From the NCBI GenBank assembly GCA_018829965.1, contig JAHJTG010000008.1:9314-73313 (forward strand): DNA of 64,000 nucleotides, in the 5' to 3' direction. This document shows positions 9,803-44,577 of the stretch, in pieces. Every line of letters starts with the position of its first letter. Positions within the stretch are counted from its first letter, which is position 1. Made by a program: the position numbers and the translations under genes. Origin of the DNA: Patescibacteria group bacterium (GTDB taxonomy: Bacteria; Patescibacteriota; Minisyncoccia; Minisyncoccales; Staskawiczbacteraceae). The notes under the pieces were generated by a model. The model did no database searches, was not told the DNA's origin, and saw only the letters and a list, made by a program, of their open reading frames with translations.

Positions 9803-9949
9803 AGTTATGGATATAGTATAATATGAATATAGGATGAGATAGGAAATTTATTGATTTCGTCCTTTGAAAAATAAATTGTGATTCGCGAATATGTGTTTGC
9901 GGATGTGAAAAGATATAAATGAAACTGGAAAATTTTAAGGAGATGAAAA

Positions 9950-10306
9950 ATGAAATCTAGAATATTACTTATTGTTGTTGTACTAATAATTACCACATTA
10001 TTGATATATCATTTACTATATGCCGTCAGAATTGAAGGAGAGTTAATCGCTAAAGGAGAACCGATTGGTATTAGGTTTCGCGTATTTACGAATCCTAATA
10101 AAGGTGTTTGTTTTGAGGTTGACCGCTGGTATGAAAAAAGAAGTATACAGTTTTATGACTTTGGTTTTAATGGAACACTAGATTTAGTAATTTACTGGAT
10201 CAGCGGAAAAGAATATATCCTATATCCGAATTCCATTGATTCTGATTGGAATAATTGGGAAGAAAAGTATCTAAAAATCAGAAAACAAGCTACCGAAGGG
10301 AATTAA
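9950..10306 (+). CDS. Hypothetical membrane-anchored protein
   Basis: N-terminal TM helix. One of only two genes here with an AGGAG-like sequence upstream. Confidence 0.5.
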   Translation: MKSRILLIVVVLIITTLLIYHLLYAVRIEGELIAKGEPIGIRFRVFTNPNKGVCFEVDRWYEKRSIQFYDFGFNGTLDLVIYWISGKEYILYPNSIDSDWNNWEEKYLKIRKQATEGN

Positions 10307-20129: not shown

Positions 20130-20194
20130 AAACTAAGTTTTCGTTTAATTATTTTACCCTGTTAGAGGTTTTATGTAAACAAAAAGAGCGCTAT

Positions 20195-20305
20195 TGTGGC
20201 AACTACCTACTTTCGCGACAAAATCACTATCATCGGCCTTAGAGTATTTCACTTCCGAGTTCGGAATGGGATCGGGTGGGACAACTCTAGTATAGTCGCC
20301 ACAGC
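20195..20305 (-). rRNA. rrf: 5S rRNA
   Basis: Reverse complement reads gcuguggcgacuauacuagaguugucccacccgaucccauuccgaacucggaagugaaauacucuaaggccgaugauagu..., the canonical 5S core. Confidence 0.9.
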
Positions 20306-20697
20306 AACGCTCTTTTTTAAACCCAGTTAAATAATTTTGCTTTTTCAAAATTAATGCAAAGCATTATTTAACGAGGTAAAGAATCAAAATAAAATAATGA
20401 ATAGCTAAAATCTGTATCTATCCTTATTCTTCCGCCTAAACTTTCTTGCGAAAATCTTGGCGGAGAAGCAAAGAATTTAACAATGATTTATTAGTACTTC
20501 TCGGCTGAATGGGTTGCCCCACTTACACCTGAAGCCTATCAACCTTGTCATCTTCAAGGAATCTAGGAGTTCTAATCTTGAGGTGGGTTTCGCGCTTAGA
20601 TGCTTTCAGCGCTTATCCCTTCCTAACTTAGCTACCCAGCAATGCTCCTGGCGGAACAACTGGTACACCAGAGGTTAGTCCAACCCGGTCCTCTCGT

Positions 20698-21461
20698 CAC
20701 ATAATCTTCTATCACTAGAAGTGTAGACTATATCTTCATCCCGCCTAGCGGGAGTCGGCGTATTATGATGGGTTTAAAGCCACCATCCTTCCTTAAAATA
20801 ATGATTTTAAGAAAAAGTCGTTACGGGGTCATATCTAAAATTTTTAATAATTCTTGCTTTGTTTTCTTTTTCTTGGCTATATAGTTATCCGATTGAATGG
20901 CTATAATATAATTTACTATCTTTTTTAATTCGTTTTTTGTTAAACAATTTTTCCTTTTCTTAGAAAAAAGACAAACAGCTTTATATAGTGCTTTCGCCTG
21001 CTTTTGTTTAAAACGAATAAAAGGTATTAAATCTTTTAGGATATTTTCTATTTGCTTGAATCCATTTATTCTTAATTCACTCATTCCGTCGTTTCTTTGA
21101 GAAAAATATCCTATACCAAGTTTTTTCTTTATCCAATGGAGTGGTTTTTCGTGACGACTATCTTGATAAAAACAGATAGTAGCCATTAAGCGCCAATTTG
21201 TTTTACCATCTTTGCGCTTCTTAATTTGAAGCATTAAGCTTCCGTCTCCATCGAGAAAACCTGCGATATAAGCTAAATTTATTTTAGATTGACTTCCCAC
21301 GGTATTATCTTAATAATTATAATTTCTGGTCCTCAAGTAAATTGTACCATAATTAATGGACCGATTGCAATTATGGTTATCAACGAACCAGATATATTAA
21401 GGTTTCACCGTTATTAGCCGAATTGTCATCGTGGATTACTCCACGAAGTAGCAAATTTCTT
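20698..21461 (-). mobile_element. Group I intron in the 23S sarcin-ricin loop
   Basis: Exons rejoin as CCCUAGU|ACGAGAGGACCGG. The intron follows U and ends in G. It contains AAUACCGUGGGAAG, CCCCGUAA.., and GAUAUAGUCU (S element). Confidence 0.85.
20821..21300 (-). CDS. LAGLIDADG homing endonuclease, single-motif (I-CreI-like, presumably homodimeric); GTG start
   Basis: LAYIAGFLDGDGSL near the N-terminus; 159 aa; lies wholly inside the intron. Confidence 0.9.
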   Translation of the reverse strand: MGSQSKINLAYIAGFLDGDGSLMLQIKKRKDGKTNWRLMATICFYQDSRHEKPLHWIKKKLGIGYFSQRNDGMSELRINGFKQIENILKDLIPFIRFKQKQAKALYKAVCLFSKKRKNCLTKNELKKIVNYIIAIQSDNYIAKKKKTKQELLKILDMTP

Positions 21462-21523
21462 ACTAGGGTCAGAGCCTCTCAAAACTCTACGATCGCGGTA
21501 GATAAGGACCAACCTGTCTCACG

Positions 21524-22214
21524 CATATTTGTCATTTATTACTAAATGTATGGACTATACCACTACCCAAATTAATTGGGTAATCGACGTTTTAGCCGCC
21601 GTTAGGCGACTCCGACCGATTAAGGTCAAGTCTCTACGGGGTCGATGTATACACCTTTCGATTCTTTGAATAATTTAATTCACGAAAAGTATCAATTAAT
21701 TTAGCAAGTTTATTAAAATCTTTCTGGCATTTAACTTTACTTTTTTGAACAATAATTTTTTTCAGGAGATTTATTTGAGCTTTCTTCATTAATACATACG
21801 GGCCAACGAGTCCGATAAATTTATTTATCCCCTCTTGGGTCCCAATAATATATTCGAGAATTCCATCTTTTCTAACCCTTAAATATCCTAAATTAATTAA
21901 AGCACAAACTTTAGCAAAATTATTTTGGTTTTTCTGTGATTGGAATAACACAATGTAATTTACAACTTGGAAACCATACTTATAAGTTTTGTTTGGTTTT
22001 AGTTGCGCATATACACTACCATCCCCATCAAGAAATCCAGCCAAATATGATCTTTGTGTTTGCGAAATTAATTTTTTCATACACGACTTCCCTCGGTATT
22101 ATCCTATCATACGACAGATTATAATGAAAGGACTTCACCGATATGAGTCGATTTATTCACTGTAATATTACTATTACAGGCCGCCTAGCTTGTTAACAGA
22201 TCAAGCTTTAGTCG
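21524..22214 (-). mobile_element. Group I intron in 23S domain V (after ~U2593, the I-CreI-type site)
   Basis: Exons rejoin as GGGUUCAAACCGU|CGUGAGACAGGUUGG. Core elements AAUACCGAGGGAAG, CCCCGUAGAGACUUGAC, GGUAUAGUCC. Confidence 0.85.
21634..22080 (-). CDS. LAGLIDADG homing endonuclease, I-CreI family
   Basis: SYLAGFLDGDGSVYAQLKPNKTYKYGFQV aligns by eye with I-CreI YLAGFVDGDGSIIAQIKPNQSYKFKHQL; 148 aa. Confidence 0.9.
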   Translation of the reverse strand: MKKLISQTQRSYLAGFLDGDGSVYAQLKPNKTYKYGFQVVNYIVLFQSQKNQNNFAKVCALINLGYLRVRKDGILEYIIGTQEGINKFIGLVGPYVLMKKAQINLLKKIIVQKSKVKCQKDFNKLAKLIDTFRELNYSKNRKVYTSTP

Positions 22215-22307
22215 ACGGTTTGAACCCAGCTCACGTAACACTTTAATTGGCGAACAGCCAAACCCTTGGGAGCGGCTTCACCCCCAGGATGTGTTGAGCC
22301 GACATCG

Positions 22308-22592
22308 CTGTCGGTAATTTTTCTCTCCTTACAGAGAGGTTCGGACTATATCTTCACCCTTTCTCAATAAGAAAGGGGCTGGCGTGTTAGCTCTCCAATT
22401 TTTTGGAGAACTCCGACTATTAAAAGTCAAGTCTCTACAGGGTTATAACCCAATCTTTTTAAGAATTGAGTTAAACTTCCCACGGTATTATCGTTTAGTT
22501 TTACTAATTTTACCATATGAACTAAGTACGATTCCACCGTTATAAGCCAGATTTTTGGTATAGCATTACTGCTATAGCACCCCGATTTGTTA
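22308..22592 (-). mobile_element. ORF-less group I intron in 23S domain V (after ~U2500) with a homing-endonuclease-gene relic
   Basis: Exons rejoin as GUUCGGCACCU|CGAUGUCGGCUC. Keeps AAUACCGUGGGAAG, CCUGUAGAGACUUGAC, GAUAUAGUCC. Only an 18-codon remnant (MGSLTQFLKRLGYNPVET*) lies between them. Confidence 0.8.
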
Positions 22593-23209
22593 AGGTGCCG
22601 AACAGAGCCGTCGCTATGGACGCTCGGGCTCTACCAGCCTGTTATCCCCGGAGTAGCTTTTGGTTGATGATCTTTCGCGGTTCTAATAACCACGATCGGT
22701 TCACTAAGTTCTGGTTTCCCAACTGCGCGACATATCCGTCTTGCAGTAAAGCCGGCATTTGGCTTTGCCCTATCGCTCCGATTTCCATCCGGAGCTAGCC
22801 GACCTTATAAACGCCTCCATTACCTTTTAGGAGGCAAGTGCCCCACTTAAACTGCCCATTAAACACTGTCTCCGCCTAAGGCGGATTAGAATCAGGGTTT
22901 TTAAAGGATGGTGTTTCATCGGCGACTCCACCCTGTCCGAAAACAAGGTTTCAAAGTCTCCCATCTACGCTACGCATTAAAAACCAAAACTCAATATCTA
23001 ACTACAGTAAAGCTTCCGGGGTCTTTCCGTCTAGCCGCGATTAACCGGCATCTTCACCGGTATTGCATTTTCACCGGGCTCCTCGTTGAGACAGTTCTCT
23101 AGTCGTTAAGCCATTCATGCGGGCCGGAACTTACCCGGCAAGGGATTACGCTACCTTTGGACGGTTATAGTTACCGCCGACGTTCACTGGTGCTTCAATC
23201 AATGAGCCC

Positions 23210-23320
23210 CACTCCGCTCCTTACTTCGTAAGAGCTTCGAAGGGGCAGGTATTCTTTTTTTCAGAATACTTGTCCTGCGTAGCTTTTTTTACGAAACAAA
23301 AAGCGAAGTAGGACCCTCAA
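23210..23320 (-). repeat. 23S hairpin insertion 1 (domain IV, ~E. coli 1860 region)
   Basis: ~110 extra nt relative to E. coli, with nested hairpins (caggtattc-ttttttt-cagaatacttg). Confidence 0.6.
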
Positions 23321-23427
23321 CTTTAACATTCCAGCACTGGTCAGGCTTCACCCCCTATACATCCTCTTACGAGTTAGCAGAGAGCTGTGTTTTTGATAAA
23401 CAGTCGCTAGAGATACGTTAGCTGCGT

Positions 23428-23572
23428 CCCACCGCACCTCGCTATGCTCGGTACTACCGCGGATTAACACGGATTTTAACTGATTAACACGGATAAAATA
23501 TCCGTATGAATCCAGTCGTATCCGCATGTATCCGTGGTACCAAACGCAGTGAGGTACGGTAGGAAGGCCATA
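23428..23572 (-). repeat. 23S hairpin insertion 2 (variable helix ~E. coli 1730)
   Basis: Outer arms cctcgctatgctcgg / ccaaacgcagtgagg enclose CGGAT-rich modules (family I, also at 38245-38300). Confidence 0.7.
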
Positions 23573-24712
23573 TTGCGAACTTACGGCCGCTTTTTTGCCG
23601 AGTTCCTTAACGAGGAATCACCCGTTCATCTTGGCACACTTACGCCGACCCACCTGTGTCGGTTTACGGTACGGTTCCCATTTTTTTAACCCTACGAGCT
23701 TTTCTAGACAACGCGCTCATCCGAATCGCCAGTGCCGAAGCACCAACTTTTCTCATTCCTTAGATTACTCCTAAGAACAAGAACATAAATCCAATAATTT
23801 GCTCGGACTACTGTGTTGTGTCACTCTTCAGAAAAAAATGGAAGGGACGGAATATTAACCGTCTAACCATTAGGTACGCCTTTCGGCTTCCCCTTAGGAC
23901 CGCCTAACCCTTGGCTGATTGCCATTGCCAAGGAACCCTTGGGTTTTCGATGTCCCGGTATTTCACCGAGATTGCGGTTACTCATGCCAACATTCTCTCT
24001 TCTTAACGCTCCACCAGACCTCACAGTCTAGCTTCGCAGCGATAAGAATGCTCTCCTACCACGCATAAAAACCTGAGTTTCTATGCATCCATATCTTCGG
24101 TATTAAGCTTTAGTCCCGATGAATCTTCGGCGCACTTTGCCTATATAGGACAGTGAGTTGTTACACACTCTTTAAAAGATAGCTACCTCTAAGCTAACTT
24201 CCTGCCTGTAAAGGGCAAAATACTTCCTTAATCTACACTTAGCTTAATTTTGGGACCTTAGATGATGATCTGGACTGTTCTCCTTACGACCATGGAGCTT
24301 AGCCCCCACAGTCTAACTGCCTTTTTGACGATGCTGGTATTCGGAGTTTAATTAGAATATCTGAGCGAAGCCCAAGAAATTCTATTTAGTGCTCTACCCC
24401 CAGCACCTAAACAAAAGACGCTAGCCCTAAAGCTATGTCGGAGAGAACCAGCTATTACCAAGCTCGATTAGCTTATCACTTCTTACCACAGGTCATCCCA
24501 GAGTATTGCACGGCTCAAGGGTTCGGACCTCCCCCGCTCTTTCGAGAGGGTTCATCCTGCCCATGGCAAGCTCGCCTGGCTTCGGGTCTCAACCACTCAG
24601 CTTAATTGTTTGCGCTATTAACGCTCGCTTTCGCTATGCCTCCACCCCGTAAGGGTTTAGACTAGCTGAGTAACTGAACTCGTTGGCTCGTTCTGCAAAA
24701 AGCACGCCATCA

Positions 24713-24898
24713 CCAGCCACATCTCGCTGCGCTCGATGTGTCTGGAAACCCTAAATCCTAAATCCGAAATCCTAAACAATAACTAAAATCCAAAATCAAA
24801 AACTTATTTTAAATTTGAAATTTAGAATTTGGAATTTGTTTAGAGTTTCGTGTTTAGTGCTTAGAATTTCCGCATCGAACAAAGTGAGATGCGGCCAG
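24713..24898 (-). repeat. 23S hairpin insertion 3 (helix 25 region, ~E. coli 540)
   Basis: Outer arms catctcgctgcgctcgatg / catcgaacaaagtgagatg enclose inverted heptamer arrays of family C. Confidence 0.7.
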
Positions 24899-25286
24899 CT
24901 CTGACTCGTTGTAAGCAAATGGTTTCAGGTTCTATTTCATCGGGGTCGCCCCCCTACTTTTCACCTTTCCCTCACGGTACTGGTTCACTATCGGTAATAT
25001 TGAGTATTTAGCCTTGGCCGTATAGTTCGGCCTGATTCCTGCCAGGTTATCATTCCCGACAGTACTTAAGTAAAATAGCAAGGAGCGTAAAGTCGTTTTC
25101 GTCTACAGGACTATTACCTTCTATGGTCACCCTTTCCAGGGTTATTTGACTAACGAAAAATTTATTCTTGCAGAGCAAAAATAAATTTACACTTTACCAA
25201 AATGTTCTCCCTCGGATAGAATCCAGCACTCTTTAACGTTTCAAAAAGTACTGGATGCTCCCGACGCTAAATCCTTGCAACCCCAA

Positions 25287-25425
25287 TCGCTCGCGCCTCG
25301 CTATGCTCGTCGCTTCGCTCTCCTACCAATTACGAATTTTTTCGAATTACGAATATTCGTAATTAGTTTAAATTGGTAATTCGTAGGAAGAGTAAGTGCC
25401 GAACGCAGTAAGGCACGAACGAATG
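25287..25425 (-). repeat. 23S hairpin insertion 4 (domain I, ~E. coli 270 region)
   Basis: Outer arms gcctcgctatgctcg / cgaacgcagtaaggc enclose ACGAAT modules of family B. Confidence 0.7.
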
Positions 25426-25471
25426 GTTTGGGCTCTTCCCTTTTCGCTCGCCACTACTAAGGGAATAACTG

Positions 25472-25747
25472 GTCCTACATCTCACAAATTCCGCTAAATT
25501 TAGAAACGAAATAATGCGCTAAATTCAAGACGCGATGACGAAACGCATAAGTGAAACGATGCGTTGAGGAAGAGCCTCGCAGAAGTTAGCCATTATTTCG
25601 CTTCCCTTTCGGGCGGGCGAATTCTGGACATATTCTTTGTTGCTCGTCGCTCACGTATCGCGTTGCTTATACGCTGTCGCTCCTCGCGTCGCGAATCTGT
25701 CGCAGAATTCGCTTCGCTAAATTAGTGCAATTTGTGAGATGCAGGAC
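25472..25747 (-). repeat. 23S insertion 5: 276-nt element with 19-bp terminal inverted repeats (domain I, ~E. coli 215)
   Basis: gtcctacatctcacaaatt ... aatttgtgagatgcaggac (18/19 complementary), with an internal gcgaattctg/cagaattcgc hairpin. No ORF and no group I core. Confidence 0.75.
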
Positions 25748-26333
25748 ATTTGTTCTCTTTTCCTCTGGGTACTGTGATGTTTCGCTTCCCCAGGTCTACC
25801 CCTAACCTTGCGGTCAGGTAATCCCGTTCTGCGGGATTGGGTTGCCCCATTCAGAAACCTCCGGATCAAAGGTTGCTAGCCACCTCCCCGAAGCTTATCG
25901 CAGGCACGCCACGTCTTTCATCGCCTCAATATTCCAAGGCATCCACCATTTGCCTATAAAATTATTTTCTTTGCGTAAGTTTATTCAACAATATAAATAC
26001 TGCTGAATGAATAGATACAGATTTTAGATATCTATTACTATTATATTTTTAGATGATTCTTTACTCTGTTAAAAAAAGACCCCTGTCTAAAGTTTAACAG
26101 AGTGGCCTAATTATATCTTTTTAAAAAAAGCAAGATTATAATTAGGGTTGTATTTTCAAAGTTCTTGATAAATATACTATTCTTAAAAAATTAAAAACCG
26201 CCTAGTTAAAGCGGTCCATCAGACATATACCCGCCTGCATCGCCTGTGGCGAAAGCCACTGCGGGCAGGCAAAAACTCGGAGTTTAACCGCTTCTTTTTC
26301 TAAAAATGGTTTTAATATTTATCATGTAAGGTT

Positions 26334-26362
26334 ATATTATTCTATAAATAAAAACGTGTCAA
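26334..26362 (-). promoter_or_regulatory. Candidate sigma70-type promoter for the 23S-5S unit
   Basis: Minus strand reads TTGACA-17 nt-TAATAT, ~360 nt upstream of the 23S 5' end and upstream of the processing stem. Confidence 0.45.
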
Positions 26363-26499
26363 GCCTTTCACCCTTTAAAAGAAGGTGTAGGGCACAGACC
26401 ATTGTCCTCCTGACGCGAAACTGGATCAATAATTTATGATATTATATACAAAATCTGTCACACAATATTGGGAGACCCGACCTCCCAATTAAATTAATT

Positions 26500-26533
26500 G
26501 AAAACAAAGCCCGGTCGCCTTAGGCGACCGGGC
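26500..26533 (-). terminator. Rho-independent terminator after the 26560-27240 gene
   Basis: gcccggtcgcc-taa-ggcgaccgggc hairpin followed (minus strand) by uuuguuuu. Confidence 0.7.
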
Positions 26534-26559
26534 TAATGTTTTCAATACTGAAAATTTAT

Positions 26560-27240
26560 CTATTTAATCTTTCTCTTTAAGTTCTCAATTGCTTGAGCTG
26601 CAGCATCTTTTCCACCTAAACCGAAAGCCAACATAACCGAACCGGCAATAGCGGCAACAATACCATAAACTATACCCTTGTATAGAATCTGGACTAAATC
26701 TGATTTTGGTAATAATTGATCTAAGATCATGAATATTAAGAAAATCCAAATTGTCCATCTTACGATAGAGGCTGCTAAATGAGCGTAACCGATTTTCATT
26801 TTCTCAACTGTTGCTCTTACTAACTTTTCTACGATATCAGCAATAACTACACCGACTACAAAAATTAAAACAGCGATAATGATGTTTGGGATATAGTTTA
26901 AGATATCCCTTAGAAGTTCTCCAAATTTAGTTAAATTTAGAATATCAACTGTTAATAATAATGTGACGATTACAAATATCCATTTAACGATAGCTCCAAT
27001 AAAAGCAGACGGATCCACTTTTATATCAGCTTTCTCAATGGCTTTCTGCCAACCTTCTTTTTCAAAAAGACGGTTGAATTTTAGTCCCTTCAAAAGTTCG
27101 GTTATAAATCTGCCGATTCCGACAGAGATGATATAGCCGATAACGAAGACAATTATTGCTATTATAAGTTGAGGAAGAAACGAAACCAATTCTTTAAGAA
27201 ATGGTTGTATAATTGTTACGTACCATTCTGGTGTTACCAT
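26560..27240 (-). CDS. Polytopic membrane protein (repeated TM-helix type, possibly mechanosensitive-channel-associated)
   Basis: ~6 TM helices with internal repeats; no catalytic motif. Confidence 0.5.
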   Translation of the reverse strand: MVTPEWYVTIIQPFLKELVSFLPQLIIAIIVFVIGYIISVGIGRFITELLKGLKFNRLFEKEGWQKAIEKADIKVDPSAFIGAIVKWIFVIVTLLLTVDILNLTKFGELLRDILNYIPNIIIAVLIFVVGVVIADIVEKLVRATVEKMKIGYAHLAASIVRWTIWIFLIFMILDQLLPKSDLVQILYKGIVYGIVAAIAGSVMLAFGLGGKDAAAQAIENLKRKIK

Positions 27241-27411
27241 ATTTATTTTAGGTTTAATTATCGATTTATTAATAAATAATTCGACCTTTATAAATTAGGC
27301 TTCTTGTCTGCCTGCGGTAGATCTCCCAAAGGGAGACAACCAGCCTAATCGTTAAACATTATTTTATTATGTGCTTATCTGCCTAAGAATCAACCCCTTA
27401 TGTGGATAATT

Positions 27412-28500
27412 CTATCCATGCTTTATCTCAATCACATCTCCGTCTTGAATGATATATTCCTTTCCTTCTGTTCTTATTAATCCCCTCTCTCTTGCCTTAG
27501 AAAAACCGCCGGCTTCAATCAAATCTTTCCAATTAATAACCTCGGCTTTAACAAACGTCTTTTCAAAATCGCTATGGATTACTCCTCCTGCTTGCGGAGC
27601 CATCTCCCCTCTTTTTATTGTCCAAGCACGCGTCTCATCTGTCCCAGTTGTCAAAAAAGTAATTAGACTTAACAGCTCGTAAGATTTTTTAACTAAAATA
27701 TCTGTTTCTGACTCTGGAGGAAATCCCAAAGAGATTCTTTCTTCTTTTAAGAAACCTGCTGTTTCAAATTCTGAAGCGATGTCTACTATTAAATACGGCC
27801 AACTTGTCTCGCCAGAATTGGCTGGGTTATTCTTTTTAAAAACCTCTAAAGTATTTTGATCCACCTCCTCATCTTTTCCGTTTAAAAGATACAGCCTTGG
27901 TTTTAATGTTAATAATTGAAAACTATCCAAAATTTTCTTCTCTTCATCTGTAAAGCTTTGCTCAACTAATATTTTTTCTTCAGTTAAAAATTCTTTTGCT
28001 TTTTTTAATACTTCCATTTCCTTAATCGCCTCCTTCCTATTAGCCCTTACATCACCCTCCAAGCCATGTATTCTTTTCGTAATAGTATCTAAATCTTTTA
28101 AAATTAATTCTACGTCTAAGATCCCTTTATCTCTTAATGGACTTATTGATTCTTGCGTGTTAATAATATCGGAATTAGAAAAAGCGCGAAGGATATATAT
28201 GATTGCATCTGTTTCACGAATATTTGCTAAAAACTTGTTTCCCAAGCCTTCGCCTTCGCTCGCCCCTTTTACCAAGCCGGCGATATCAACAAACTCAATG
28301 GTTGTATAAATCTTCTTTGCAGAACTAGTTAATTCAGCTAATTTATCAACTCTTTCGTCTGGAACCAAAACAACCCCTACATTAGGGTCAATTGTACAAA
28401 AAGGATAATTAGCAATATCCACTTCCTTTTTGGTTAATGTTTTAAATAGAGTGGACTTACCTACATTCGGTAATCCTACAATGCCTATACTAAGTGCCAT
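27412..28500 (-). CDS. ychF: Ribosome-binding ATPase YchF
   Basis: G1 GLPNVGKST, NYPFCTIDPN, DIAGLV.GAS.G.GLGN.FL, C-terminal TGS-like domain. Confidence 0.95.
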   Translation of the reverse strand: MALSIGIVGLPNVGKSTLFKTLTKKEVDIANYPFCTIDPNVGVVLVPDERVDKLAELTSSAKKIYTTIEFVDIAGLVKGASEGEGLGNKFLANIRETDAIIYILRAFSNSDIINTQESISPLRDKGILDVELILKDLDTITKRIHGLEGDVRANRKEAIKEMEVLKKAKEFLTEEKILVEQSFTDEEKKILDSFQLLTLKPRLYLLNGKDEEVDQNTLEVFKKNNPANSGETSWPYLIVDIASEFETAGFLKEERISLGFPPESETDILVKKSYELLSLITFLTTGTDETRAWTIKRGEMAPQAGGVIHSDFEKTFVKAEVINWKDLIEAGGFSKARERGLIRTEGKEYIIQDGDVIEIKHG

Positions 28501-28529
28501 TTATAAATTTTTAAAATTATTTTTTTATA

Positions 28530-28883
28530 TTAAAACCTATAAATATTGCCCTCCGATGGAGTTTCAATATTAGTATTTGCTAAAACTTTTTTTATTCTCT
28601 CTGCTTCATTTTCAATTATTTCCCCGTCGTATTCTCCACTATGACTATGCGCTCCACTATTTTCATATGAAGCAAACTTCTGATCTAAATGAAGATTGAA
28701 GATAAACTCGTTATGGTCCTCATCTTTTTTTATAAACACATGGAATCTCGGGTAACCATATCCCCTGCTTAAATCCTTAACAAGGCTTTCTTCGCCGTTC
28801 TCGCTTTTTCTGCCAATCTTATATCCAATCTTCTTCGCCATATTTACAATAGTTTCGTTAGTGTTTTTAACTATAAATTTCAT
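28530..28883 (-). CDS. Hypothetical protein (117 aa; start moved to Met66 of the tracked ORF)
   Basis: The ORF-track N-terminus reads through tRNA-Ala and repeat DNA. MKFIVKN... begins 8 nt downstream of the tRNA. Confidence 0.5.
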   Translation of the reverse strand: MKFIVKNTNETIVNMAKKIGYKIGRKSENGEESLVKDLSRGYGYPRFHVFIKKDEDHNEFIFNLHLDQKFASYENSGAHSHSGEYDGEIIENEAERIKKVLANTNIETPSEGNIYRF

Positions 28884-28891
28884 ATTATTTA

Positions 28892-28962
28892 TGGACCCTG
28901 CGAGAATCGAACTCGCATCTCCTCGTTGCAAACGAGGTGTGCTACCACTATACCAAGGGCCC
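28892..28962 (-). tRNA. tRNA-Ala (anticodon UGC)
   Basis: Acceptor GGGCCCU/AGGGUCC with the G3:U70 identity pair; anticodon stem CCUCG/CGAGG with loop UUUGCAA; T arm GCGAG-UUCGAUU-CUCGC. Confidence 0.85.
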
Positions 28963-28965
28963 ACC

Positions 28966-29060
28966 AAAGCTATCGAGAATCTTCGATTTCTTTCAGAAAT
29001 CGGGACAAATGTCCCGATGGCTGTTGCCATCGCGGATGCTCGATTTTGCTCGGCAAAATC
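28966..29060. repeat. Family A module cluster (GTCCCGAT / TCGAGnATCnTCGA words)
   Basis: atcgagaatcttcgat, tttctttcagaaatcgggac, gtcccgatggctgttgccatcg, cgattttgctcggcaaaatcg: concatenated small hairpins. Confidence 0.75.
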
Positions 29061-29092
29061 GGCAAGGTGTTCTACCACTAAACTAAAGCCCC
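29061..29092 (-). pseudogene. Orphan tRNA 5' half (acceptor strand, U8, D arm, start of anticodon stem)
   Basis: GGGGCUU-UA-GUUU-AGUGGUA-GAAC-A-CCUUG then runs straight into family A repeats. No matching 3' half (CAAGG... AAGCCCC) before tRNA-Ala. Confidence 0.5.
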
Positions 29093-29093
29093 C

Positions 29094-29423
29094 CTAATTT
29101 ATCCCCCAGAATTTTATTATTTGGACATCATCTAACCCCCAAATTCTCATTAGAATAAAATCCTTGAAATCGCTTATAATTATACCCATACTCAAAAAAA
29201 TCAAAACGTATCCAACATATTTTCTGCTTTTTTTAAAAAACAAATAAGATAAACTGATAAATAACAATAACAACCCAAATATCCAATGATGCGGAATCCA
29301 TATTATCTGCCCCCCAATGATATGCCCTATTCTCCCGATAGCATATCCCATAAACACTGCGAAGGTATATATAAAATATTTTATAGACATTATTGCTCTT
29401 AATAATATCTTACCTTTTTCCAA
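29094..29423 (-). CDS. Small membrane protein
   Basis: Three predicted TM helices; 109 aa. Confidence 0.5.
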   Translation of the reverse strand: MEKGKILLRAIMSIKYFIYTFAVFMGYAIGRIGHIIGGQIIWIPHHWIFGLLLLFISLSYLFFKKSRKYVGYVLIFLSMGIIISDFKDFILMRIWGLDDVQIIKFWGIN

Positions 29424-29483
29424 TAGTTTTTCAAGCCAGCAGGCGCAGGATTGCCAAGCACTAATCTACGGATAGTGCTCGGC

Positions 29484-29512
29484 TAAAACAAAAAACCGCA
29501 TTTCACGGTTTT
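29484..29512 (-). terminator. Rho-independent terminator downstream of the 16S gene
   Basis: aaccg-ugaaau-gcgguu hairpin followed by uuuuuguuuu on the minus strand. Confidence 0.6.
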
Positions 29513-29698
29513 TTGTTTTAGTTTCTTAAAGCTGTTTCGAATATCCGATTTTGACGATTTCGTACAGTAGCAAGCTGTATGAAACATTACTTCGGTAAAC
29601 GTTTTAACTTGAAATCCAAATTTAAGACTTCAAATTAAGTCGACAAAAAAATATAAAAAAATTGATCCACGACCAGGTTCCCCTAGCCGTGCCTTGTT

Positions 29699-30477
29699 CA
29701 TGCTATTCCCCTATATCGCTATAAGGCATGGACTATATCATCATCCTTTCACAAAATATTTTTGACTTTACTGGATGGTAAGAATTTACAATTTTAGCAA
29801 ATCTCTCGTGATGTTTAGTAGAAACAAATATTCTCCAATAATCAGGGTCAACTTTTTTACTCGGATTATGGATTTTTCCAGTTTCTATCTTTAAACTTTT
29901 GAGAAGTAACTTTAATTGCTTGATTTTGCTTAAATCCTTTTGGACTAACTGAATATAAAATCTGTCTTTTGTATGAGGAACGCCACCTTCGGCGTCAAAA
30001 AATCCTTTTACATAAAACAATTTTTCATAATAGTTATCCAAATTTATAGGATTAAATTTGAAATCTAAGTCTTTACAAAGTGTCTCTAAAACATACATAT
30101 TTCTATCCTTTCCCTCTTTGTAAATCCATGATTTGCAATTAATTTTACCTAGCAAAATTTGTAAATTTTCCAACCACTGCTTATTTTTCTGGGAGAATCT
30201 AATTCTCTTTCCTTTGTTTAAAGAGGCATCATGAATCGCTCCATTTAAATAAGCTATAATCTCATATTTTGTGGTAGGAGTTCGGCGTGTAGTCTCTGAG
30301 GGGTCAATTCTAATTTTATTAGAACGACTTCCCTGCTGATTGTCTGCACTAGAAACATTTTCACTCATATTATCTTATTATAATATGAGTAGTCCTAGAT
30401 TCACAGATGTTCCAGCATACAGCCAACTTTTTCTCTAAGGGTTACCCCTATGAGGTCGCAACATGCAGATTGCACTG
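29699..30477 (-). mobile_element. Group I intron in 16S after U1498 (decoding centre, inside the 1492R primer site)
   Basis: Exons rejoin as GGGGCUAAGUCGU|AACAAGGCACGG. ACAAUCAGCAGGGAAG and CCCCUCAGAGACUAC lie 5' of most of the ORF; GAUAUAGUCC lies 3' of it. Confidence 0.85.
29733..30368 (-). CDS. LAGLIDADG homing endonuclease (double-motif)
   Basis: IIAYLNGAIHDAS and VKGFFDAEGGV motifs. The tracked N-terminus reads through intron core elements, so the true start is uncertain. Confidence 0.8.
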   Translation of the reverse strand: MSENVSSADNQQGSRSNKIRIDPSETTRRTPTTKYEIIAYLNGAIHDASLNKGKRIRFSQKNKQWLENLQILLGKINCKSWIYKEGKDRNMYVLETLCKDLDFKFNPINLDNYYEKLFYVKGFFDAEGGVPHTKDRFYIQLVQKDLSKIKQLKLLLKSLKIETGKIHNPSKKVDPDYWRIFVSTKHHERFAKIVNSYHPVKSKIFCERMMI

Positions 30478-30893
30478 ACGACTTAGCCCCTCTTATTAAG
30501 CCCAGCGTAGGATCCCGTAAACGGGACACTTCGGCTGTTCCTAACTCGCTTGGCTTGACGGGCGGTGAGTACAAGACTCAGGAACATATTCATCGCCGCA
30601 TAGCTGATCGGCGATTACTAGCGATTCCAACTTCATGAGGGCGGGTTTCAGCCCTCAATCCGAACTAAGACCGATTTTGGTGGGATTTGCTTCACCTTGC
30701 GGTTTTGCGTCCCATTGTCTCGGCCATTGTACCACGTGTGCGGCCCAAGTCATCAAAGGGCCATGCTGATTTGGCGTCATCCTCGCCTTCCTCCCAGTTG
30801 TCCCGGGCAGTCCCCTATGACATATAAAACATAGGGCAAGGGTTGCGCTCGTTACCCGAATTAACGGTACGTCTCAAGACACGAGCTGACGAC

Positions 30894-31713
30894 CATATTG
30901 ATCTATAATTTCTTATAGTATGGACTATACCATCTTCCATCCGCCTGAGGCGGATTAGGAGACCAGCGTTTAATGATAGGTTATATCATTAAGTTTTCTC
31001 GCCTTTAGAGAAAACTAAGTCTCTACGGGGTATAAAAACTAATTTTTGTAATTTTATCGAATAATTATAAATTTTTTCTAAAAATTCTCTTGCCTGGTAT
31101 CGCGAGATATAAAGGCAAAATGTCTTTGCTGTTTTGTAGTAATAAATTTTTGTATTACTAATTCCTATCCTTAAAAGAAGACTTTTATCAATTTCTGCTT
31201 CATTTTTATTTCCATATACTATCCTGCAATCATTTCTAAAGTTCTTATCGATTGAACCGTCTCCATCAAACCTTCCTGCAAAATATGCATTAATTAAATT
31301 ATCTTTTTCTAATTTAATTAAATTATTTCGTGCCTCTCTAAATTCTCTCAGGAATGGACGGCTATTAACAAAAATATGATTTCTATTAAATTTTATCCTA
31401 TCTTCAGAAAAAAACTTCAATAGAAAATCTTTAAACTTGGCTATCAAAGCAGGGTCTACATTACTTAGACCAATCGAACTTGACCACCAATAACTATCTG
31501 CACACCAAAGTCCTAAGATATAAGAATCTTCTTCTCTAGAGAAAAAATTACAAAAATTAGTTTTTATACTTCCCACGGTATTGCCATTAATTATTATATT
31601 TTAACATAATAATTAGAAGGTTTCACCGTTATGAGCTGGTTTTTTACCGTATTAAAATAAATTAGTACGGGGCATTTCACTAAAAATTACTTTTTAGTGG
31701 GTCGTTATAACAC
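30894..31713 (-). mobile_element. Group I intron in 16S helix 34 (after ~U1060)
   Basis: Exons rejoin as GGUGCUGCAUGGUU|GUCGUCAGCUCGUG. Core elements AAUACCGUGGGAAG, CCCCGUAGAGACUUAG, GGUAUAGUCC. Confidence 0.85.
30989..31576 (-). CDS. LAGLIDADG homing endonuclease (double-motif); GTG start
   Basis: YILGLWCADSYWW and AYFAGRFDGDGSI motifs; 195 aa. Confidence 0.85.
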   Translation of the reverse strand: MGSIKTNFCNFFSREEDSYILGLWCADSYWWSSSIGLSNVDPALIAKFKDFLLKFFSEDRIKFNRNHIFVNSRPFLREFREARNNLIKLEKDNLINAYFAGRFDGDGSIDKNFRNDCRIVYGNKNEAEIDKSLLLRIGISNTKIYYYKTAKTFCLYISRYQAREFLEKIYNYSIKLQKLVFIPRRDLVFSKGEKT

Positions 31714-31981
31714 AACCATGCAGCACCTGTTCTGCTGCCTTGTGGGGGGCCATCCTTTCAGACGGCTTTCAACAGAATTTCTAGACTTGGTAAGGTTCTT
31801 CGTTTGTTGTCGAATTAAGCCACATGGTCCACCGCTTGTGTGAGTCCCCGTCTATTTCTTTGAGTTTTAGCCTTGCGGCCGTACTTCCCAGGCGGATCAC
31901 TTAACGCATTAGCTTCGCCACTGACAGGGTCGACACTGCCAATAGCCAGTGATCATCGTTTACAGCGTGGACTACAAGGGT

Positions 31982-32961
31982 CATCTTGTAGTTTTTTCTT
32001 ATTTCTTCGATTACTCGAAGGATCGGACTATATCATTTTCTGAAGTTTTTCCATTTGTTTTTCTTTTCAGTAATATATTTTTCTACTACTGCTTTAGAAA
32101 AACCTGTCAATTCACTAACTTCAGAAATCCAGCGTTGTTGTAAATCATGGTCTTTGTAAATAATCAAGACCTTCGGTAGCATTTCTGCCACTTTTATATG
32201 CGGCATTATAATCCGCAAAAACTTCTTTAACTCTTCGCTTGAGCGAATCCATAAACGATAATATATTCTTTCTTCATTCATCCATTTTCTAGTTATTTTA
32301 CCAATATGAACATTTATGTCCCATACTTTTTTTAAGTAATTAGACAATAATTTTTGCTCTTCATAAGAAAAACAATCTGTACAAAATACTCCCTTCCTTC
32401 CATTACCTATTATAGATCCATCATCAAGCCACCATATCGCTAAAGATAAAGGAGTTATTGCATTAAGCCACTTACGGCTAATTTTAAATACTCCTTTTTT
32501 ATGAGTTAAATCATATAACTCTGTTAATTCTGGTATTGCTACGCTTTGATATCGCAATTTTTGACCGCCAAATCCATCTTTTATTTCTGATTTCCAAAAA
32601 TAGTTTTCCCCGGAAATTTCCTTTAATTCATTTACTTTCCAGAAAAAATATTCCTTTTGCTTGATAGAATGACGGAAAGAAAAACGAGCATTTTTATAAT
32701 TATCGTTAATCTTCAGCGATCCATCGCCTAGCAAAGAACCAAGAATAATATCTTTGCAATTTTTAGACAAAAATGAATTTTTCATTTTCTATCTTTTTGA
32801 CTTACATAGTCTCTACGGGGTCGCTATCTTAAAAAGACGCGACTTCCCTCGGGATTATCCATCCGACTAAAATGGGTTTCCCCGATACAGCTAGATGCTC
32901 ACCATATTGTCACCAATATGGAGGACACCATTTAGTCTGTTAATTTCACAGACAAGGATTT
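31982..32961 (-). mobile_element. Group I intron in the 16S 790 loop (after U793, inside the 806R primer site)
   Basis: Exons rejoin as GGAUUAGAU|ACCCUUGUAGUCCACGC. AAUCCCGAGGGAAG and CCCCGUAGAGACUAUG precede the ORF; GAUAUAGUCC follows it. Confidence 0.85.
32033..32785 (-). CDS. LAGLIDADG homing endonuclease (double-motif, with C-terminal helical extension)
   Basis: IILGSLLGDGSL and LAIWWLDDGSI motifs; 250 aa. Confidence 0.9.
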   Translation of the reverse strand: MKNSFLSKNCKDIILGSLLGDGSLKINDNYKNARFSFRHSIKQKEYFFWKVNELKEISGENYFWKSEIKDGFGGQKLRYQSVAIPELTELYDLTHKKGVFKISRKWLNAITPLSLAIWWLDDGSIIGNGRKGVFCTDCFSYEEQKLLSNYLKKVWDINVHIGKITRKWMNEERIYYRLWIRSSEELKKFLRIIMPHIKVAEMLPKVLIIYKDHDLQQRWISEVSELTGFSKAVVEKYITEKKNKWKNFRK

Positions 32962-33239: not shown

Positions 33240-34072
33240 CGAATAACGAAAAATTATTCGTTTTGGACTATATCATCACCTCGCTTCAGCGAGGGTTCGG
33301 CGTCTGATGATGGGTTCAAATACCACCATCTCATCCACTTAAGGATTCAGTCTCTGAGGGGTTAAAGCACAATAAGGTAATCTTTTTGAAAAACACGAAA
33401 TAATATTCGGAGAGATCAAATTTAAAAATTTATCTCTTCCTTTTGCCCCGATATATATTTCAGGATATCTTTTGCCTCTGCAAAGAGGCGTATGAATATT
33501 GGATTCTATTCCGAAGTTTTTCTTTAAAACCTCAACCAATAATTTATTCTCTTCGACGCTAAATGCATTTGTGCAAAAAGAAAAATTATAATGGTCTTTC
33601 GGTCTGAAATCTAAACTTCCATCGTCCATATACCATACAGCTAAACTTAATGGAGAAATTAATAACTCCTGAATGTTTTTTGGAACAATTTTCTTTCCAT
33701 TTTTATAAAATATTTCTTTGTATCTAGAGATATCTTCTAAAAATTTCGTTTGAAAATACCATTGCTTATTATCTTTCCTCTGTTTTGGCGAACTTTTGCA
33801 TAAATTTTCAAAGCAAGAATATAACCAGAATACATATTCTTTATGTGCTTCTGATTGTTTTATTCTCAAGCATTTTCCATCTATCCAAGCATCGCCCAAA
33901 AGAGTGCCGATAATAATTTCGTGTTGTTTCTTTGTCATTACCTAATTATACTCAACTTCCCTGCTGATTGTCACATTAAAATTATCAACTTTGTGATAAA
34001 GGAGCATTAATGTGCTTTCCAGCATATAAGCCGAATTTTGATTCTGCGCCCGCCAACCTTCATGGGTTGGCC
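33240..34072 (-). mobile_element. Group I intron in the 16S 530 loop (after U516, inside the 515F primer site)
   Basis: Exons rejoin as CCUAAUUCUGU|GCCAGCAGGAGCGGUAAUAC. Core elements ACAAUCAGCAGGGAAG, CCCCUCAGAGACUGAAUCC, GAUAUAGUCC. Confidence 0.85.
33339..33938 (-). CDS. LAGLIDADG homing endonuclease (double-motif)
   Basis: IIIGTLLGDAWI and LAVWYMDDGSL motifs; 199 aa. Confidence 0.9.
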   Translation of the reverse strand: MTKKQHEIIIGTLLGDAWIDGKCLRIKQSEAHKEYVFWLYSCFENLCKSSPKQRKDNKQWYFQTKFLEDISRYKEIFYKNGKKIVPKNIQELLISPLSLAVWYMDDGSLDFRPKDHYNFSFCTNAFSVEENKLLVEVLKKNFGIESNIHTPLCRGKRYPEIYIGAKGRDKFLNLISPNIISCFSKRLPYCALTPQRLNP

Positions 34073-34371
34073 ACAGAATTAGGACCCCCTTATTCCTTCG
34101 GTACTGTCAGTCGCCAAAGGCGACTTCCTCCCGAAGAAAAGAACTTTACACTCCGAAGAGTTTCTTCATTCACGTAACGTCGCTCCATCAGGCTTTCGCC
34201 CATTGTGGAAGATTCTCGACTGCAGCCTCCCGTAGGAGTATGGCCCGTGTCGCAGTGCCATTGTTGGGGAACACGCTCTCACGCCCCCTACCCGTCATAG
34301 TCTTGGTAGGCCGTTACCCTGCCAACTAACTGATAGGCCGCAGGCCCATCTCAAAGTGGATTGCTCCTTTA

Positions 34372-34498
34372 CTCCTCCTTCGCTCTTCATTCCATTCAGA
34401 GCTACGACGGACGAGCCTTGCTTTACGCTTGCAAAGTATAAATACCTTGCGGCTTTGTCCATCTGAAGCTTTTTATGAAATAAAAAGCGAAAGAGGAG
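34372..34498 (-). repeat. 16S hairpin insertion (~E. coli 190-220 region)
   Basis: ~125 extra nt bounded by ctcctccttcgc / gcgaaagaggag inverted arms; no ORF. Confidence 0.65.
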
Positions 34499-34952
34499 AC
34501 TATCGGAAATTAGCCAATCTTTCGACTGGTTATGTCCGTCTTTGAGGTTGGTACCTACGTGTTACTAACCCGTTCGCCACTGACCCTTGCGGGTCCGTTT
34601 GACTTGCATGCCTTATCCACGTTACCAGCGTTCACCCTGAGCTAGAATCAAACTCTCAAAAAATTGAAGTTTGATTTAAAAGAAAATAAATTCTCTTTTG
34701 AATCTAGTTACAATGTGATAGCTTTATTCGAAACAACTTTAAAAAACTAATTATTTATCCAGTTTAAATAGGTTATTTTAAACTGGGGTGCATTATTAAT
34801 TTATCAATGTACGGGGTATTTGTTTTGAAAAACAAATCCCGAAGATATCCATCTTTACTTAAAGATAAATATCTTCGGGGTTCATTCAACCATTTTAAAT
34901 TTTAATTCTCCATCAATTTATATTTTTTATTTATTTTTTATATGCAATTACT

Positions 34953-36006: not shown

Positions 36007-36726
36007 TTATTCTTTTACTCTCTTATTCTCAACTTCTTCTTTAGCTTTTAACACAACCTCTTTAATCTTCTCTAAAATATATTTTGCAGAACTTATAGAG
36101 TCATCGTTGGCTGGAATAGGATAGTCAGCTAAAGAAGGATCAATATTAGTATCGCAAACTGCAATAATCTTAATCCCCTTTCTTTTTGCTTCTCTGGCAG
36201 CCAAGCCATCTTTATTCATATCTAATACTAAAACTGCTTCAGGCAATTTTTGCATATCTTTTACTCCTTCAAACTTTATGCGAAGAGATTCAATCTCTTT
36301 TTCAATTTTCATTTTTTCCTTCTTAGTATATTTTTCTAACCCCCCGACTTCTTTCTGCTTTAATAAGTCCTTAAAATGAGTAACTCTTTTTAAAATTGTT
36401 TCAAAATTAGTAAAGGCACCACCCAACCATCTTTCATTTACATAAGGCAATCCGCAAATTTCAGCGTTTTCTTTTATTAACGCTTTTATTGGAACCTTTG
36501 TTCCGACAAGAAGCATATTCTTACCTTCAGAGATAAGAGCTTCAATAAACTTTAGTGCTTCATCAAACTCTTCTACAGTTTTCTCAAGATCAATAGTATG
36601 AACTGAGTTTTTTATACCTGAAACATACTGTTTCATCTTTGGATGAAGTTTAGAAACACGGTGCCCGAATTGGACATTCGCCTTTTCCATATCTTGGATA
36701 TTTAAACTAAACAAGTTTTTTACCAT
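36007..36726 (-). CDS. rpsB: 30S ribosomal protein S2
   Basis: GHRVSKLHPKM, ...NERWLGG..TN, ...D.N..AV.EA.K.GIP; adjacent to tsf. Confidence 0.95.
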   Translation of the reverse strand: MVKNLFSLNIQDMEKANVQFGHRVSKLHPKMKQYVSGIKNSVHTIDLEKTVEEFDEALKFIEALISEGKNMLLVGTKVPIKALIKENAEICGLPYVNERWLGGAFTNFETILKRVTHFKDLLKQKEVGGLEKYTKKEKMKIEKEIESLRIKFEGVKDMQKLPEAVLVLDMNKDGLAAREAKRKGIKIIAVCDTNIDPSLADYPIPANDDSISSAKYILEKIKEVVLKAKEEVENKRVKE

Positions 36727-36737
36727 ATTTTAATTGA

Positions 36738-36843
36738 ACGCGATACTAATCTACGAATAACATACCAATTATACGAATAACTTATAGTGAGTTTATTGAA
36801 CCATTTGTATTATTGGTATGCGAATTAGTATCATTGGTATCGC
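36738..36843. repeat. 106-nt structured repeat (copy 1 of 2) filling the rpmE-rpsB spacer
   Basis: ~80% identical to 51380-51486. Imperfect long inverted arms gcgatactaatctacgaataacataccaat / attggtatgcgaattagtatcattggtatcgc. Confidence 0.85.
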
Positions 36844-37290: not shown

Positions 37291-38133
37291 ATGAACGAAG
37301 AAATTATAAAAAGCGGGGGGCTAGGAAAAAGTCCCACTTCGCCTGATGGCTTCGCGGGACAACAATCACAGCAAGCTGTAATTGTTGAAATCCGGGCAGG
37401 AACTGGCGGAGACGAAGCTAGCTTATTTGCTAGGGATTTGTTTCGTATGTACTCAAGATTCAGCCAAAATCAAGGATGGAGCCAGAAGATTTTAGATTCT
37501 AGTTTAAACGATTTAGGCGGGTATAAAGAAATCATTTTTGAGTTATCAGGTCCCAATGTCTATGAAAGTATGAAATATGAAGGTGGAGTACATCGCGTCC
37601 AAAGAATTCCCAAAACAGAAAAGCAAGGCAGGGTTCATACATCAACAACAACCGTAGCGGTTTTAAAAAAGCCAAAGAAAACAGAAATTAATATCAGCCC
37701 AAGCGATTTAAAAATTACTACTTACAAAGCTTCTGGTCCTGGAGGACAATATGTTAACAAAACAGAGTCAGCTATAAGAATCGTTCATATTCCAACAGGA
37801 CTTGTGGTTACTTCTCAATCTGAAAGGAACCAACTCCAAAATAAAGAAAGCGCTATGACTATTTTAGCAGCAAGATTACTGGAAAAAAAACAAAAAGAAG
37901 AACAATTGCAGATTACAGGAGCGCGACGCGAACAAATCGGTTGGGCAAAAAGAGCTGAGAAGATGAGAACATATAACTTCCCTCAAGATAGGATAACAGA
38001 CCATAGAATAAATAAGTCTTGGCATAATTTAGAAAATATATTAAATGGAAATTTAGAACCGATCATAAAAGCATTTAAAAAGACAAATCCTGGTCCCGAT
38101 GCCGCAAACGGCGGCATCGAGGATCCTCGATAA
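37291..38133 (+). CDS. prfA: Peptide chain release factor 1 lacking most of domain 1
   Basis: RAGTGGDEA, tripeptide PKT (PxT) in [37 protein letters not shown]. Only ~34 aa precede RAGTGG, against ~105 in E. coli RF1. Confidence 0.85.
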
Positions 38134-43652: not shown

Positions 43653-44555
43653 TCAATTGAATAATGTATTTTGTTCTTGCAAAAATTTTTTTATTCTTTG
43701 CCCAGATAAATCACAATATTTTCTATCTATATCATAACCGACATACTTTCTATTAGTTTTTAGAGCAGCGATACAGGTTGTCCCAGCTCCAACGAAAGGA
43801 TCCAACACGACATCTCCTTCAAAAGTATAAAGTTGAATTACGCGATAAGGTAAATCAACTGGAAATGGTGCGGGGTGTCCAATTTTTCTTGCCCTTTCAG
43901 CTGAAAATCTCCAAATACTTTTTGTAAATTCCAAAAATTCTTCCTTACTTATAGTGCTCTTTTTTTTCTGTAAATTAGAACGACTAAATGTATCCTTGCA
44001 GAAAACAAGAATATATTCATGGACATCCCGCAACACAGGATTGTTTGCTTTTAAATAAGACCCCCAAGCAGTGGACGGACTTGCGCTGTTTCCTTTATCC
44101 CAAAGAATTTCGCCACGCATCAAGAAACCCAATGCATTCATATCTTCAACAATATAAGAGTGAAGTGGCAAATATGGTTTTCTGCCCAAATTAGCAACAT
44201 TTATGCATACCCTACCGCCAGGAACTAAAACTCGGTGCGTCTCTTTAAATACTCTTTTTAATAATTCTCTATATTCTTTGAGAGATAAATTTTTATCGTA
44301 TTCTTTCCCAACATTATACGGAGGGGAAGTAACCATCAGATGGACACTATTATCTGGAAGTTCTGTCATCGCCTCACTACTTTTACAAAAAATTTTGTTT
44401 ATATTTTGAGGAAGAATTTGATTTTCAATATAATCAACATCTTTTCCGTTATTCAACCCCTCATATAATCGACCTGCATAAAATACAGCAGAATCGTGAT
44501 TTATTTTTGCAGGAGCGCCGAATGAACTTGTTTTAGAGCCGTTAGTAATTTTCAT
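43653..44555 (-). CDS. Type II DNA methyltransferase, beta-class (N4-cytosine or N6-adenine)
   Basis: TSPPYN (motif IV) is N-terminal to DPFVGAGTT (motif I), the circular permutation of beta-class amino-methyltransferases. Confidence 0.85.
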   Translation of the reverse strand: MKITNGSKTSSFGAPAKINHDSAVFYAGRLYEGLNNGKDVDYIENQILPQNINKIFCKSSEAMTELPDNSVHLMVTSPPYNVGKEYDKNLSLKEYRELLKRVFKETHRVLVPGGRVCINVANLGRKPYLPLHSYIVEDMNALGFLMRGEILWDKGNSASPSTAWGSYLKANNPVLRDVHEYILVFCKDTFSRSNLQKKKSTISKEEFLEFTKSIWRFSAERARKIGHPAPFPVDLPYRVIQLYTFEGDVVLDPFVGAGTTCIAALKTNRKYVGYDIDRKYCDLSGQRIKKFLQEQNTLFN

Positions 44556-44577
44556 TTATATTTATATTTTAATTTTA

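Follow-up and report, generated by a model that had tools for sequence, protein, structure and literature searches.

Does the only 16S rRNA gene in this stretch of DNA still encode an anti-Shine-Dalgarno (anti-SD) sequence and, if not, how are start codons found? SD:anti-SD pairing is the textbook mode of start selection. Lineages that have discarded the anti-SD show that this pairing is dispensable, and they provide natural test cases for SD-independent initiation. The window, i.e. the whole stretch analysed here (64 kb, in which all coordinates are positions), contains 49 scored open reading frames (ORFs) outside the rRNA genes and, according to an Rfam search, a single bacterial 16S rRNA gene. 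Overall, it is very probable that the anti-SD of this gene was lost by decay of its 3' tail and that starts are selected independently of SD sequences.

The 3' end of the 16S rRNA gene

The last of the insertions that split the gene (table 1) is a group I intron, for which matches to Rfam Intron_gpI were found at 30280-30472 (E=8.5e-9) and, for its 3' part, at 29709-29760. The ORF that it carries (29733-30368) belongs to Pfam LAGLIDADG_3, and intron-free relatives read uninterrupted AAGUCGUAACAAGG across the site. Downstream of this intron, the minus strand reads AACAAGGCACGGCUAGGGGAACCUGGUCGUGGAUCA in the final exon and then AUUUUUUUAUAUUUUUUUGUCGAC. Helix 45 consists of a 10-bp stem capped by a GGAA loop (CACGGCUAGG-GGAA-CCUGGUCGUG) and is followed by GGAUCA at 29668-29663. 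In a search restricted to this region, positions 1427-1533 of the Rfam bacterial SSU model align to 29760-29655 (E=3.6e-4). As the alignment ends there, the canonical 3' end is expected around 29655, and it is from this model that we infer the position of the mature 16S 3' end.

The bases directly following helix 45 and GGAUCA start with AUUUUUUUAUAUU, and CCUCC(U) is absent from the tail of approximately 13 nt. Furthermore, no CCTCC occurs on the minus strand from 30600 down to 28000, i.e. for at least 1.6 kb downstream of GGAUCA, and neither CTCC nor CCTC is found on that strand from 29700 to tRNA-Ala (28960/28963). A preliminary description of this DNA had claimed that CCUCC is missing at the 16S 3' end, that helix 45 is intact and that no CCUCC follows down to 29094. 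All three points hold: the first with an A/U tail after GGAUCA and a 3' end anchored by Rfam, the second with stem and loop read directly and aligned to the SSU model, the third as far as 28000. The anti-SD has truly been lost, as confirmed for the single 16S gene of the window.

Past the tail, the predicted leader-trailer stem extends over 17 bp, with 16 of 17 positions complementary plus one G-U pair, and duplexes of like kind are predicted in 12 related loci (-32 to -75 kcal/mol). These elements bear on the idea that an unrecognized further intron or insertion lies right after GGAUCA, and that its splicing restores CCUCC. The gene already harbours four insertions, and the last of these lies only 35 nt before GGAUCA; in addition, one relative (L030, see below) shows an unusual, non-A/U sequence past GGAUCA. 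Both facts speak for such an event. However, the processing helix starts 18 nt and the terminator-like hairpin approximately 145 nt past GGAUCA, no Rfam intron match was obtained downstream of 29655, and in the relatives, too, GUCGAC comes after an equally short tail. CCUCC is lacking over at least 1.6 kb of downstream sequence, and CUCC and CCUC do not occur before tRNA-Ala. On the strength of the missing CCUCC, the helix at 18 nt and the terminator-like hairpin, we rejected a hidden intron at this place as hardly credible and close to refuted.

The rRNA genes do not form one compact operon, since approximately 3.7 kb with other genes (25970-29655, minus strand) separates 16S from 23S. The 23S rRNA gene (20400-25969, minus strand) extends past its Rfam-reported end at 22161, model positions 2527-2632 aligning at 22101-22307. 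Its 3' part is intron-split as well, because group I intron fragments (22322-22400 and 20705-20817) and LAGLIDADG_1 ORFs (21634-22080 and 20821-21300) precede the 5S rRNA gene (20194-20303). Just upstream of tRNA-Ala, which is the usual place of tRNA-Ile(GAU), a sequence beginning with GGGGGGCUUUAGUUUAGUGGUAGAACACCUUGCCGAU (~28970-29085, minus strand) resembles the 5' half of a tRNA, with an acceptor, a D arm and GAU in the place of the anticodon. No tRNA is called here by ARAGORN or by Rfam; the sequence may represent a tRNA-Ile that is degenerate or interrupted.

Table 1. Features of the 16S rRNA gene, of its flanks and of selected start regions in the window, with the tail types of related loci.
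Feature	Position	Strand	Basis or remark
16S rRNA gene	34663 to ~29655	(-)	~5.0 kb owing to four LAGLIDADG-ORF insertions
Rfam SSU_rRNA_bacteria matches	33974-34663, 31895-31964, 30456-31890, 29655-29760	(-)	
LAGLIDADG ORFs inside the 16S gene	33339-33938, 32033-32785, 30989-31576, 29733-30368	(-)	
Group I intron with LAGLIDADG ORF	29699-30477	(-)	between ...AAGUCGU (ends 30478) and AACAAGG... (from 29698)
Last 16S exon (AACAAGG, helix 45, GGAUCA)	29663-29698	(-)	direct sequence reading and Rfam SSU model
A/U-only 18-nt tail AUUUUUUUAUAUUUUUUU in place of CCUCCUUA; no anti-SD	29645-29662	(-)	sequence
Conserved GUCGAC	29639-29644	(-)	predicted leader-trailer pre-rRNA helix begins here, 18 nt past GGAUCA
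Predicted hairpin after GUCGAC	~29604-29638	(-)	fold and duplex predictions
Predicted processing stem, trailer half AUUCGAAACAGCUUUAA	29526-29542	(-)	pairs with leader 34742-34726
Predicted processing stem, leader half UUAAAGUUGUUUCGAAU	34726-34742	(-)	upstream of 16S 5' end
Terminator-like hairpin AAAACAAAAAACCG-UGAAAU-GCGGUUUUUUGUUUU, between 16S and 23S	29485-29519	(-)	~145 nt past GGAUCA; sequence and fold
109-aa ORF, between 16S and 23S	29094-29423		
tRNA-Ala, between 16S and 23S	28891-28963		
YchF, between 16S and 23S	27412-28500		
MscS-like channel gene, between 16S and 23S	26560-27240		
rpsB, start without SD caauuaaaauAUG	36007-36726	(-)	TIGR01011, E=1.9e-71, residues 8-230 = profile positions 2-224
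gap, start without SD cgcguuaucAUG	50372-51376	(-)	TIGR01534 and NF005641; full-length match fixes start codon
SD-like motif AAAGGAGG	63250-63257	(+)	5 nt before AUG of CDP-alcohol phosphatidyltransferase gene 63263-63862
SD-like motif AAGGAG	9937-9942	(+)	7 nt before AUG of 118-aa ORF 9950-10306
Tail CCUCCUUUCU			L001, L006, L017, L031, L032
Tail UCUCCUUUUU			L016, L040
Tail UUUCUUUUUU			about 25 loci
A/U-dominated tails			window, L005, L009-L011, L013 and others

Tails of the related loci

Relatives were sought in public genomes and metagenomes with the pattern GGCTAGGGGAACCTGGTCNNGGATCA, which leaves the tail unconstrained, and 6 genome and 38 metagenome loci were retrieved. The sequence of helix 45 is identical in 40 of these 44 loci, and CCUCC is absent from 39 of the 44 independently assembled 16S ends; its absence from the window is therefore no assembly accident. 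Indeed, an assembly or sequencing artefact, or else a decaying 16S pseudogene, might be suspected in a heavily interrupted gene coming from a metagenome-assembled genome. Against this, the core 16S domains all score well in Rfam (379 + 355 + 45 bits), helix 45 and the predicted flanking processing stems are intact, and 39 contigs, assembled independently and drawn from many samples, show the same architecture, so that this explanation is refuted for practical purposes.

Including that of the window, 26 distinct tails were distinguished, 22 of them without CCUCC. The tails form a graded series, from CCUCCUUUCU through UCUCCUUUUU and UUUCUUUUUU to A/U only (see table 1 for the loci). Over their first 13 nt, the 22 tails lacking an anti-SD (window included) are composed of 65% U, 24% A, 9% C and 2% G. 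GUCGAC or GUUGAC follows 16-20 nt past GGAUCA in 15 distinct variants, and this conserved spacing indicates that neither the length nor the place of the tail changes as its sequence decays. Judging from these sequences, the tail would have decayed stepwise and mostly by C-to-U changes, its length and its site before the processing helix being kept.

A neighbour-joining (NJ) tree was built on a 345-nt segment of the 16S (an earlier requirement for HSPs of at least 380 nt kept too few loci). The anti-SD-less sequences placed in this tree form one clade relative to the CCUCC-bearing L031, and the window stands on its own deep branch, approximately 80-83% identical to the others. One anti-SD-less clade with such deep branches implies that the loss is old and clade-wide. 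A comparison of 16S 3' termini across related genomes had been suggested as a check on the loss; with 39 of 44 ends devoid of CCUCC and a single clade in the tree, its outcome agrees with what was read in the window.

One GC-richer relative stands apart (L030; Ga0256829_1003637, 4026-4051, minus strand). It has the same helix 45, followed past GGAUCA by a quite different sequence (UAUCCAAAUGGAAUCGAUUUCUCGAAAGG...), and neither GUCGAC nor, within 70 nt after GGAUCA, CCUCC is present. This locus may have a tail of different architecture or may carry an insertion.

Start regions and the order of loss

Most of the 49 scored ORFs are matched by Pfam or NCBIfam. Their start codons were set by the longest-ORF rule, except in genes compared with profiles; the profile match begins at residue 1 in gap and is nearly N-terminal in rpsB, lysS and ppsA. 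At -20 to -4, AGGAG or GGAGG was detected in 2 of the 49 ORFs only, those starting at 9950 and 63263 on the plus strand, and SD-like 4-mers in three genes out of 49, versus 12% of control windows taken from coding regions. The mean duplex dG to the canonical anti-SD ACCUCCUUA is weaker upstream of the genes than in coding controls (-0.72 versus -2.48 kcal/mol), and a positional scan revealed no dip in anti-SD pairing energy near -10, where values lie between +0.2 and +0.7. There is no SD enrichment among the 49 genes of the window. These results are in agreement with the preliminary description, which had named the same two ORFs as the only ones with AGGAG/GGAGG, had proposed a genome-wide scan for motifs and free energy, and had quoted start contexts without SD for rpsB, tsf, eno, gap and ftsZ (all five are exact, and NCBIfam confirms the gene identities). 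With the anti-SD absent and no enrichment of SDs, initiation cannot rely on SD:anti-SD pairing here.

The prfB frameshift SD would be an independent test of the anti-SD; the sole release-factor gene in the window has no CTTTGA site. This gene (37291-38133, plus strand) encodes 280 aa, and its N-terminal domain is missing, as the PCRF match begins at profile position 96. Upstream of it, neither a reading frame nor a CTTTGA frameshift site was found. On the minus strand lies a restriction-modification pair (43653-45207), in which a ThaI-family restriction endonuclease (44578-45207, E=5e-96) adjoins an N4/N6 DNA methylase (43653-44555).

Two of the SD-less genes share a repeat of approximately 95 nt, approximately 90% identical, that is located directly upstream of rpsB (36727-36830, minus strand) and of gap (51377-51480, minus strand). 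It contains a perfect TATAAT, the inverted repeat CATACCAAT/ATTGGTATG and an identical 17-mer, CGTAGATTAGTATCGCG, for which 0.08 chance matches are expected; a partial copy or short related motif is found at 29457-29470 (minus strand), after the 16S terminator. The repeat probably serves highly expressed genes as a common promoter or operator.

The composition of the 49 genes at -20 to -1 is 47% A, 33% T, 11% G and 9.5% C. Thus, G is depleted upstream (about 10-11%, versus 21% in coding regions), and A reaches 47% upstream versus 34.5% in coding regions. A re-tuned anti-SD could be behind such figures, the U-rich tail pairing with A-rich leaders as an A:U counterpart of SD:anti-SD. This idea draws on the kept length of the tail and its 65% U across the clade, on the A content of the upstream regions and on a pairing that is slightly stronger for upstream regions than for the antisense strand. 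It is contradicted by the pairing energy of the window's own tail, which is the same for real and shuffled upstream sequences (-1.76 versus -1.81 kcal/mol; the observed mean is attained in 119 of 200 shuffles) and tiny at all positions (best ~-0.8 kcal/mol), and by the lack of conservation of the tail sequence among relatives. Likewise, among 128 taxa Amin et al. (PMC6107228) detected no case in which a variant anti-SD is matched by a variant SD, and they dismissed 'AAAA' motifs. Since both overall and by position the energies equal those of shuffled sequences, A:U pairing between tail and leaders was rejected, and we regard re-tuning as very unlikely.

Predicted folding energy over 40 nt reaches its weakest values, -1.6 to -2.3 kcal/mol, between the start codon and +20, versus approximately -4.8 kcal/mol in gene bodies (Mann-Whitney p=2e-6). 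Such A-rich starts, predicted to be little structured, fit SD-independent initiation. Moreover, 17 of 41 gaps between same-strand genes are of 12 nt or less, overlaps included. Translation of many genes must hence begin within polycistronic transcripts, possibly through coupling, and these genes cannot be initiated in a purely leaderless fashion. In some genes, a TATAAT-like box lies near the AUG.

Two genes of the window nevertheless display perfect, well-spaced SDs (table 1), which are not obviously needed when the anti-SD is gone and which count against our main explanation. One of them, ORF 9950-10306, has no Pfam match. The motif of the other, AAAGGAGG, recurs in the syntenic ortholog L047 (positions 2480-2500; protein 72% identical); as the entire intergenic region is approximately 80% identical between the window and L047, estimated by eye, selection on the motif cannot be inferred from its presence there. 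Isolated SD motifs of similar kind were seen in other loci without an anti-SD (L013, L039 and L041), and pooled anti-SD-less loci exhibit a slight excess of core SDs (6 of 137 ORFs, versus 2.1 expected from shuffles). On the contig of a more distant homolog (L048), three of four neighbouring genes have SDs, which implies that some related organisms do use them.

These motifs would find a reader if another 16S gene, one whose anti-SD is canonical, existed elsewhere in the genome, ribosomes being mixed and the SD-bearing genes using that copy. The two perfect SDs, one of which is conserved in an ortholog, and the 6 core SDs observed versus 2.1 expected would fit such a copy. However, the conservation of AAAGGAGG is not special in an intergenic region that is similar throughout, the excess of SDs is small, and the window has one 16S gene only. 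CPR genomes usually possess one rRNA operon, which further counts against a second copy, and we consider it highly improbable. It is also very unlikely that the kept SDs are read by something other than the 16S tail (such as a protein or a specialized ribosome), or that the U-rich tail newly selects A-rich leaders; if either were true, it would constitute a translation-initiation signal not described before.

[quoted passage not shown] Together with the C-to-U tail series, this points to a disuse of SDs that came first and relaxed selection on the anti-SD. SD disuse thus probably preceded anti-SD decay, tentatively so, with only 23 ORFs and few anti-SD-keeping relatives. The preliminary description had held that initiation is SD-independent because the anti-SD was lost: both the SD-independence and the loss are supported, whereas the causal order is probably the reverse, CCUCC-keepers being SD-poor already.

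We propose that, after SDs had fallen into disuse, an anti-SD no longer needed would have undergone neutral, AT-biased decay. The CCUCC core of the 3' tail would have changed, mostly from C to U, to A/U only, at the usual length of 16-20 nt to the processing helix. The 30S subunits would then find start codons without pairing between mRNA and rRNA. The route that we infer, and the most likely one, would be through A-rich, weakly structured start regions, with probable help from translational coupling in tight operons and from short leaders.

Comparison with known systems

The LysRS encoded in the window is 100% identical to a protein of 'Patescibacteria group bacterium' (NCBI), and its best match with a named lineage is to Candidatus Nealsonbacteria (68%), placed by NCBI in the Parcubacteria group. 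This one protein, with the source names, suggests an affiliation to CPR/Parcubacteria. In this group, Tsurumaki et al. 2022 (RNA 28:1041, PMC9297842) detected the CCTCCT motif in only 48% of Parcubacteria; the lineages without the motif overlap the uL1-lacking group, and SD helices are not expected there. The window resembles this Parcubacteria subgroup, being of CPR type, without CCUCCU, and with homing-endonuclease insertions in its rRNA genes. The rplK/rplA (L11/L1) region was not found in the 64-kb window, which is only part of the genome. Accordingly, the preliminary description had correctly observed a known trait, already published for about half of Parcubacteria. The novelty that it implied does not stand, since anti-SD loss is on record for the Parcubacteria subgroup (PMC9297842) and the lack of both anti-SD and SD is a recognized category besides (PMC6107228; PMC10783764; bioRxiv 10.1101/755876). 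The passages of Tsurumaki et al. on the detection rate and the uL1 overlap do not cover SD use, a decay series, tail length or the processing-stem context. What is added here is modest: the stepwise C-to-U decay at fixed length, the SD-poverty of CCUCC-keepers, and the A-rich, weakly structured starts. In practice, gene starts and 16S 3' ends of such genomes will be placed wrongly by gene callers and 16S annotators that expect SDs or CCUCC.

As for the wider category, Amin et al. 2018 (PMC6107228) listed 128 taxa without an anti-SD, generally SD-less too and clustered by lineage, Nikolaeva et al. (bioRxiv 10.1101/755876) linked anti-SD loss to genome reduction, and a 2024 survey (PMC10783764) assigned SD-scarce organisms without CCUCC to its category iv. 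Known members are some Flavobacteriia (Chryseobacterium, Elizabethkingia, Riemerella and Blattabacterium), Mycoplasma, Carsonella and Hodgkinia (Lim 2012; PMC6107228; PMC10783764). They have in common with the window an intact helix 45, a 13-nt tail without CCUCC and no SD enrichment, and their loss of the anti-SD is lineage-clustered and goes with small genomes. The present case differs from them in belonging to another phylum, with an independent loss, and in forming a deep clade, with approximately 80% 16S identity among its members. By its helix 45, its tail, the lack of SD enrichment among the 49 genes and its relatives, the organism of the window falls into this anti-SD-less and SD-less category.

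Mitochondrial mRNAs are mostly leaderless. In the mammalian mitochondrial 12S rRNA, helix 45 and the single-stranded site next to it are likewise kept, and no anti-SD comes after them (PMC10582724). Era, which binds GAUCACCUCC, is missing from most CPR (PMC10582724). In contrast to the mitochondrial case, many genes here are arranged in tight operons and hence cannot be leaderless.

Leaders in the Bacteroidia are A-rich. Bacteroidia also have SD-less genes and SD-independent initiation (Jha et al. 2021, PMC7797042), whereas their CCUCC is kept and hidden on the 30S platform. In the organism of the window it is gone, so that the two systems are similar in their working and not of the same kind.
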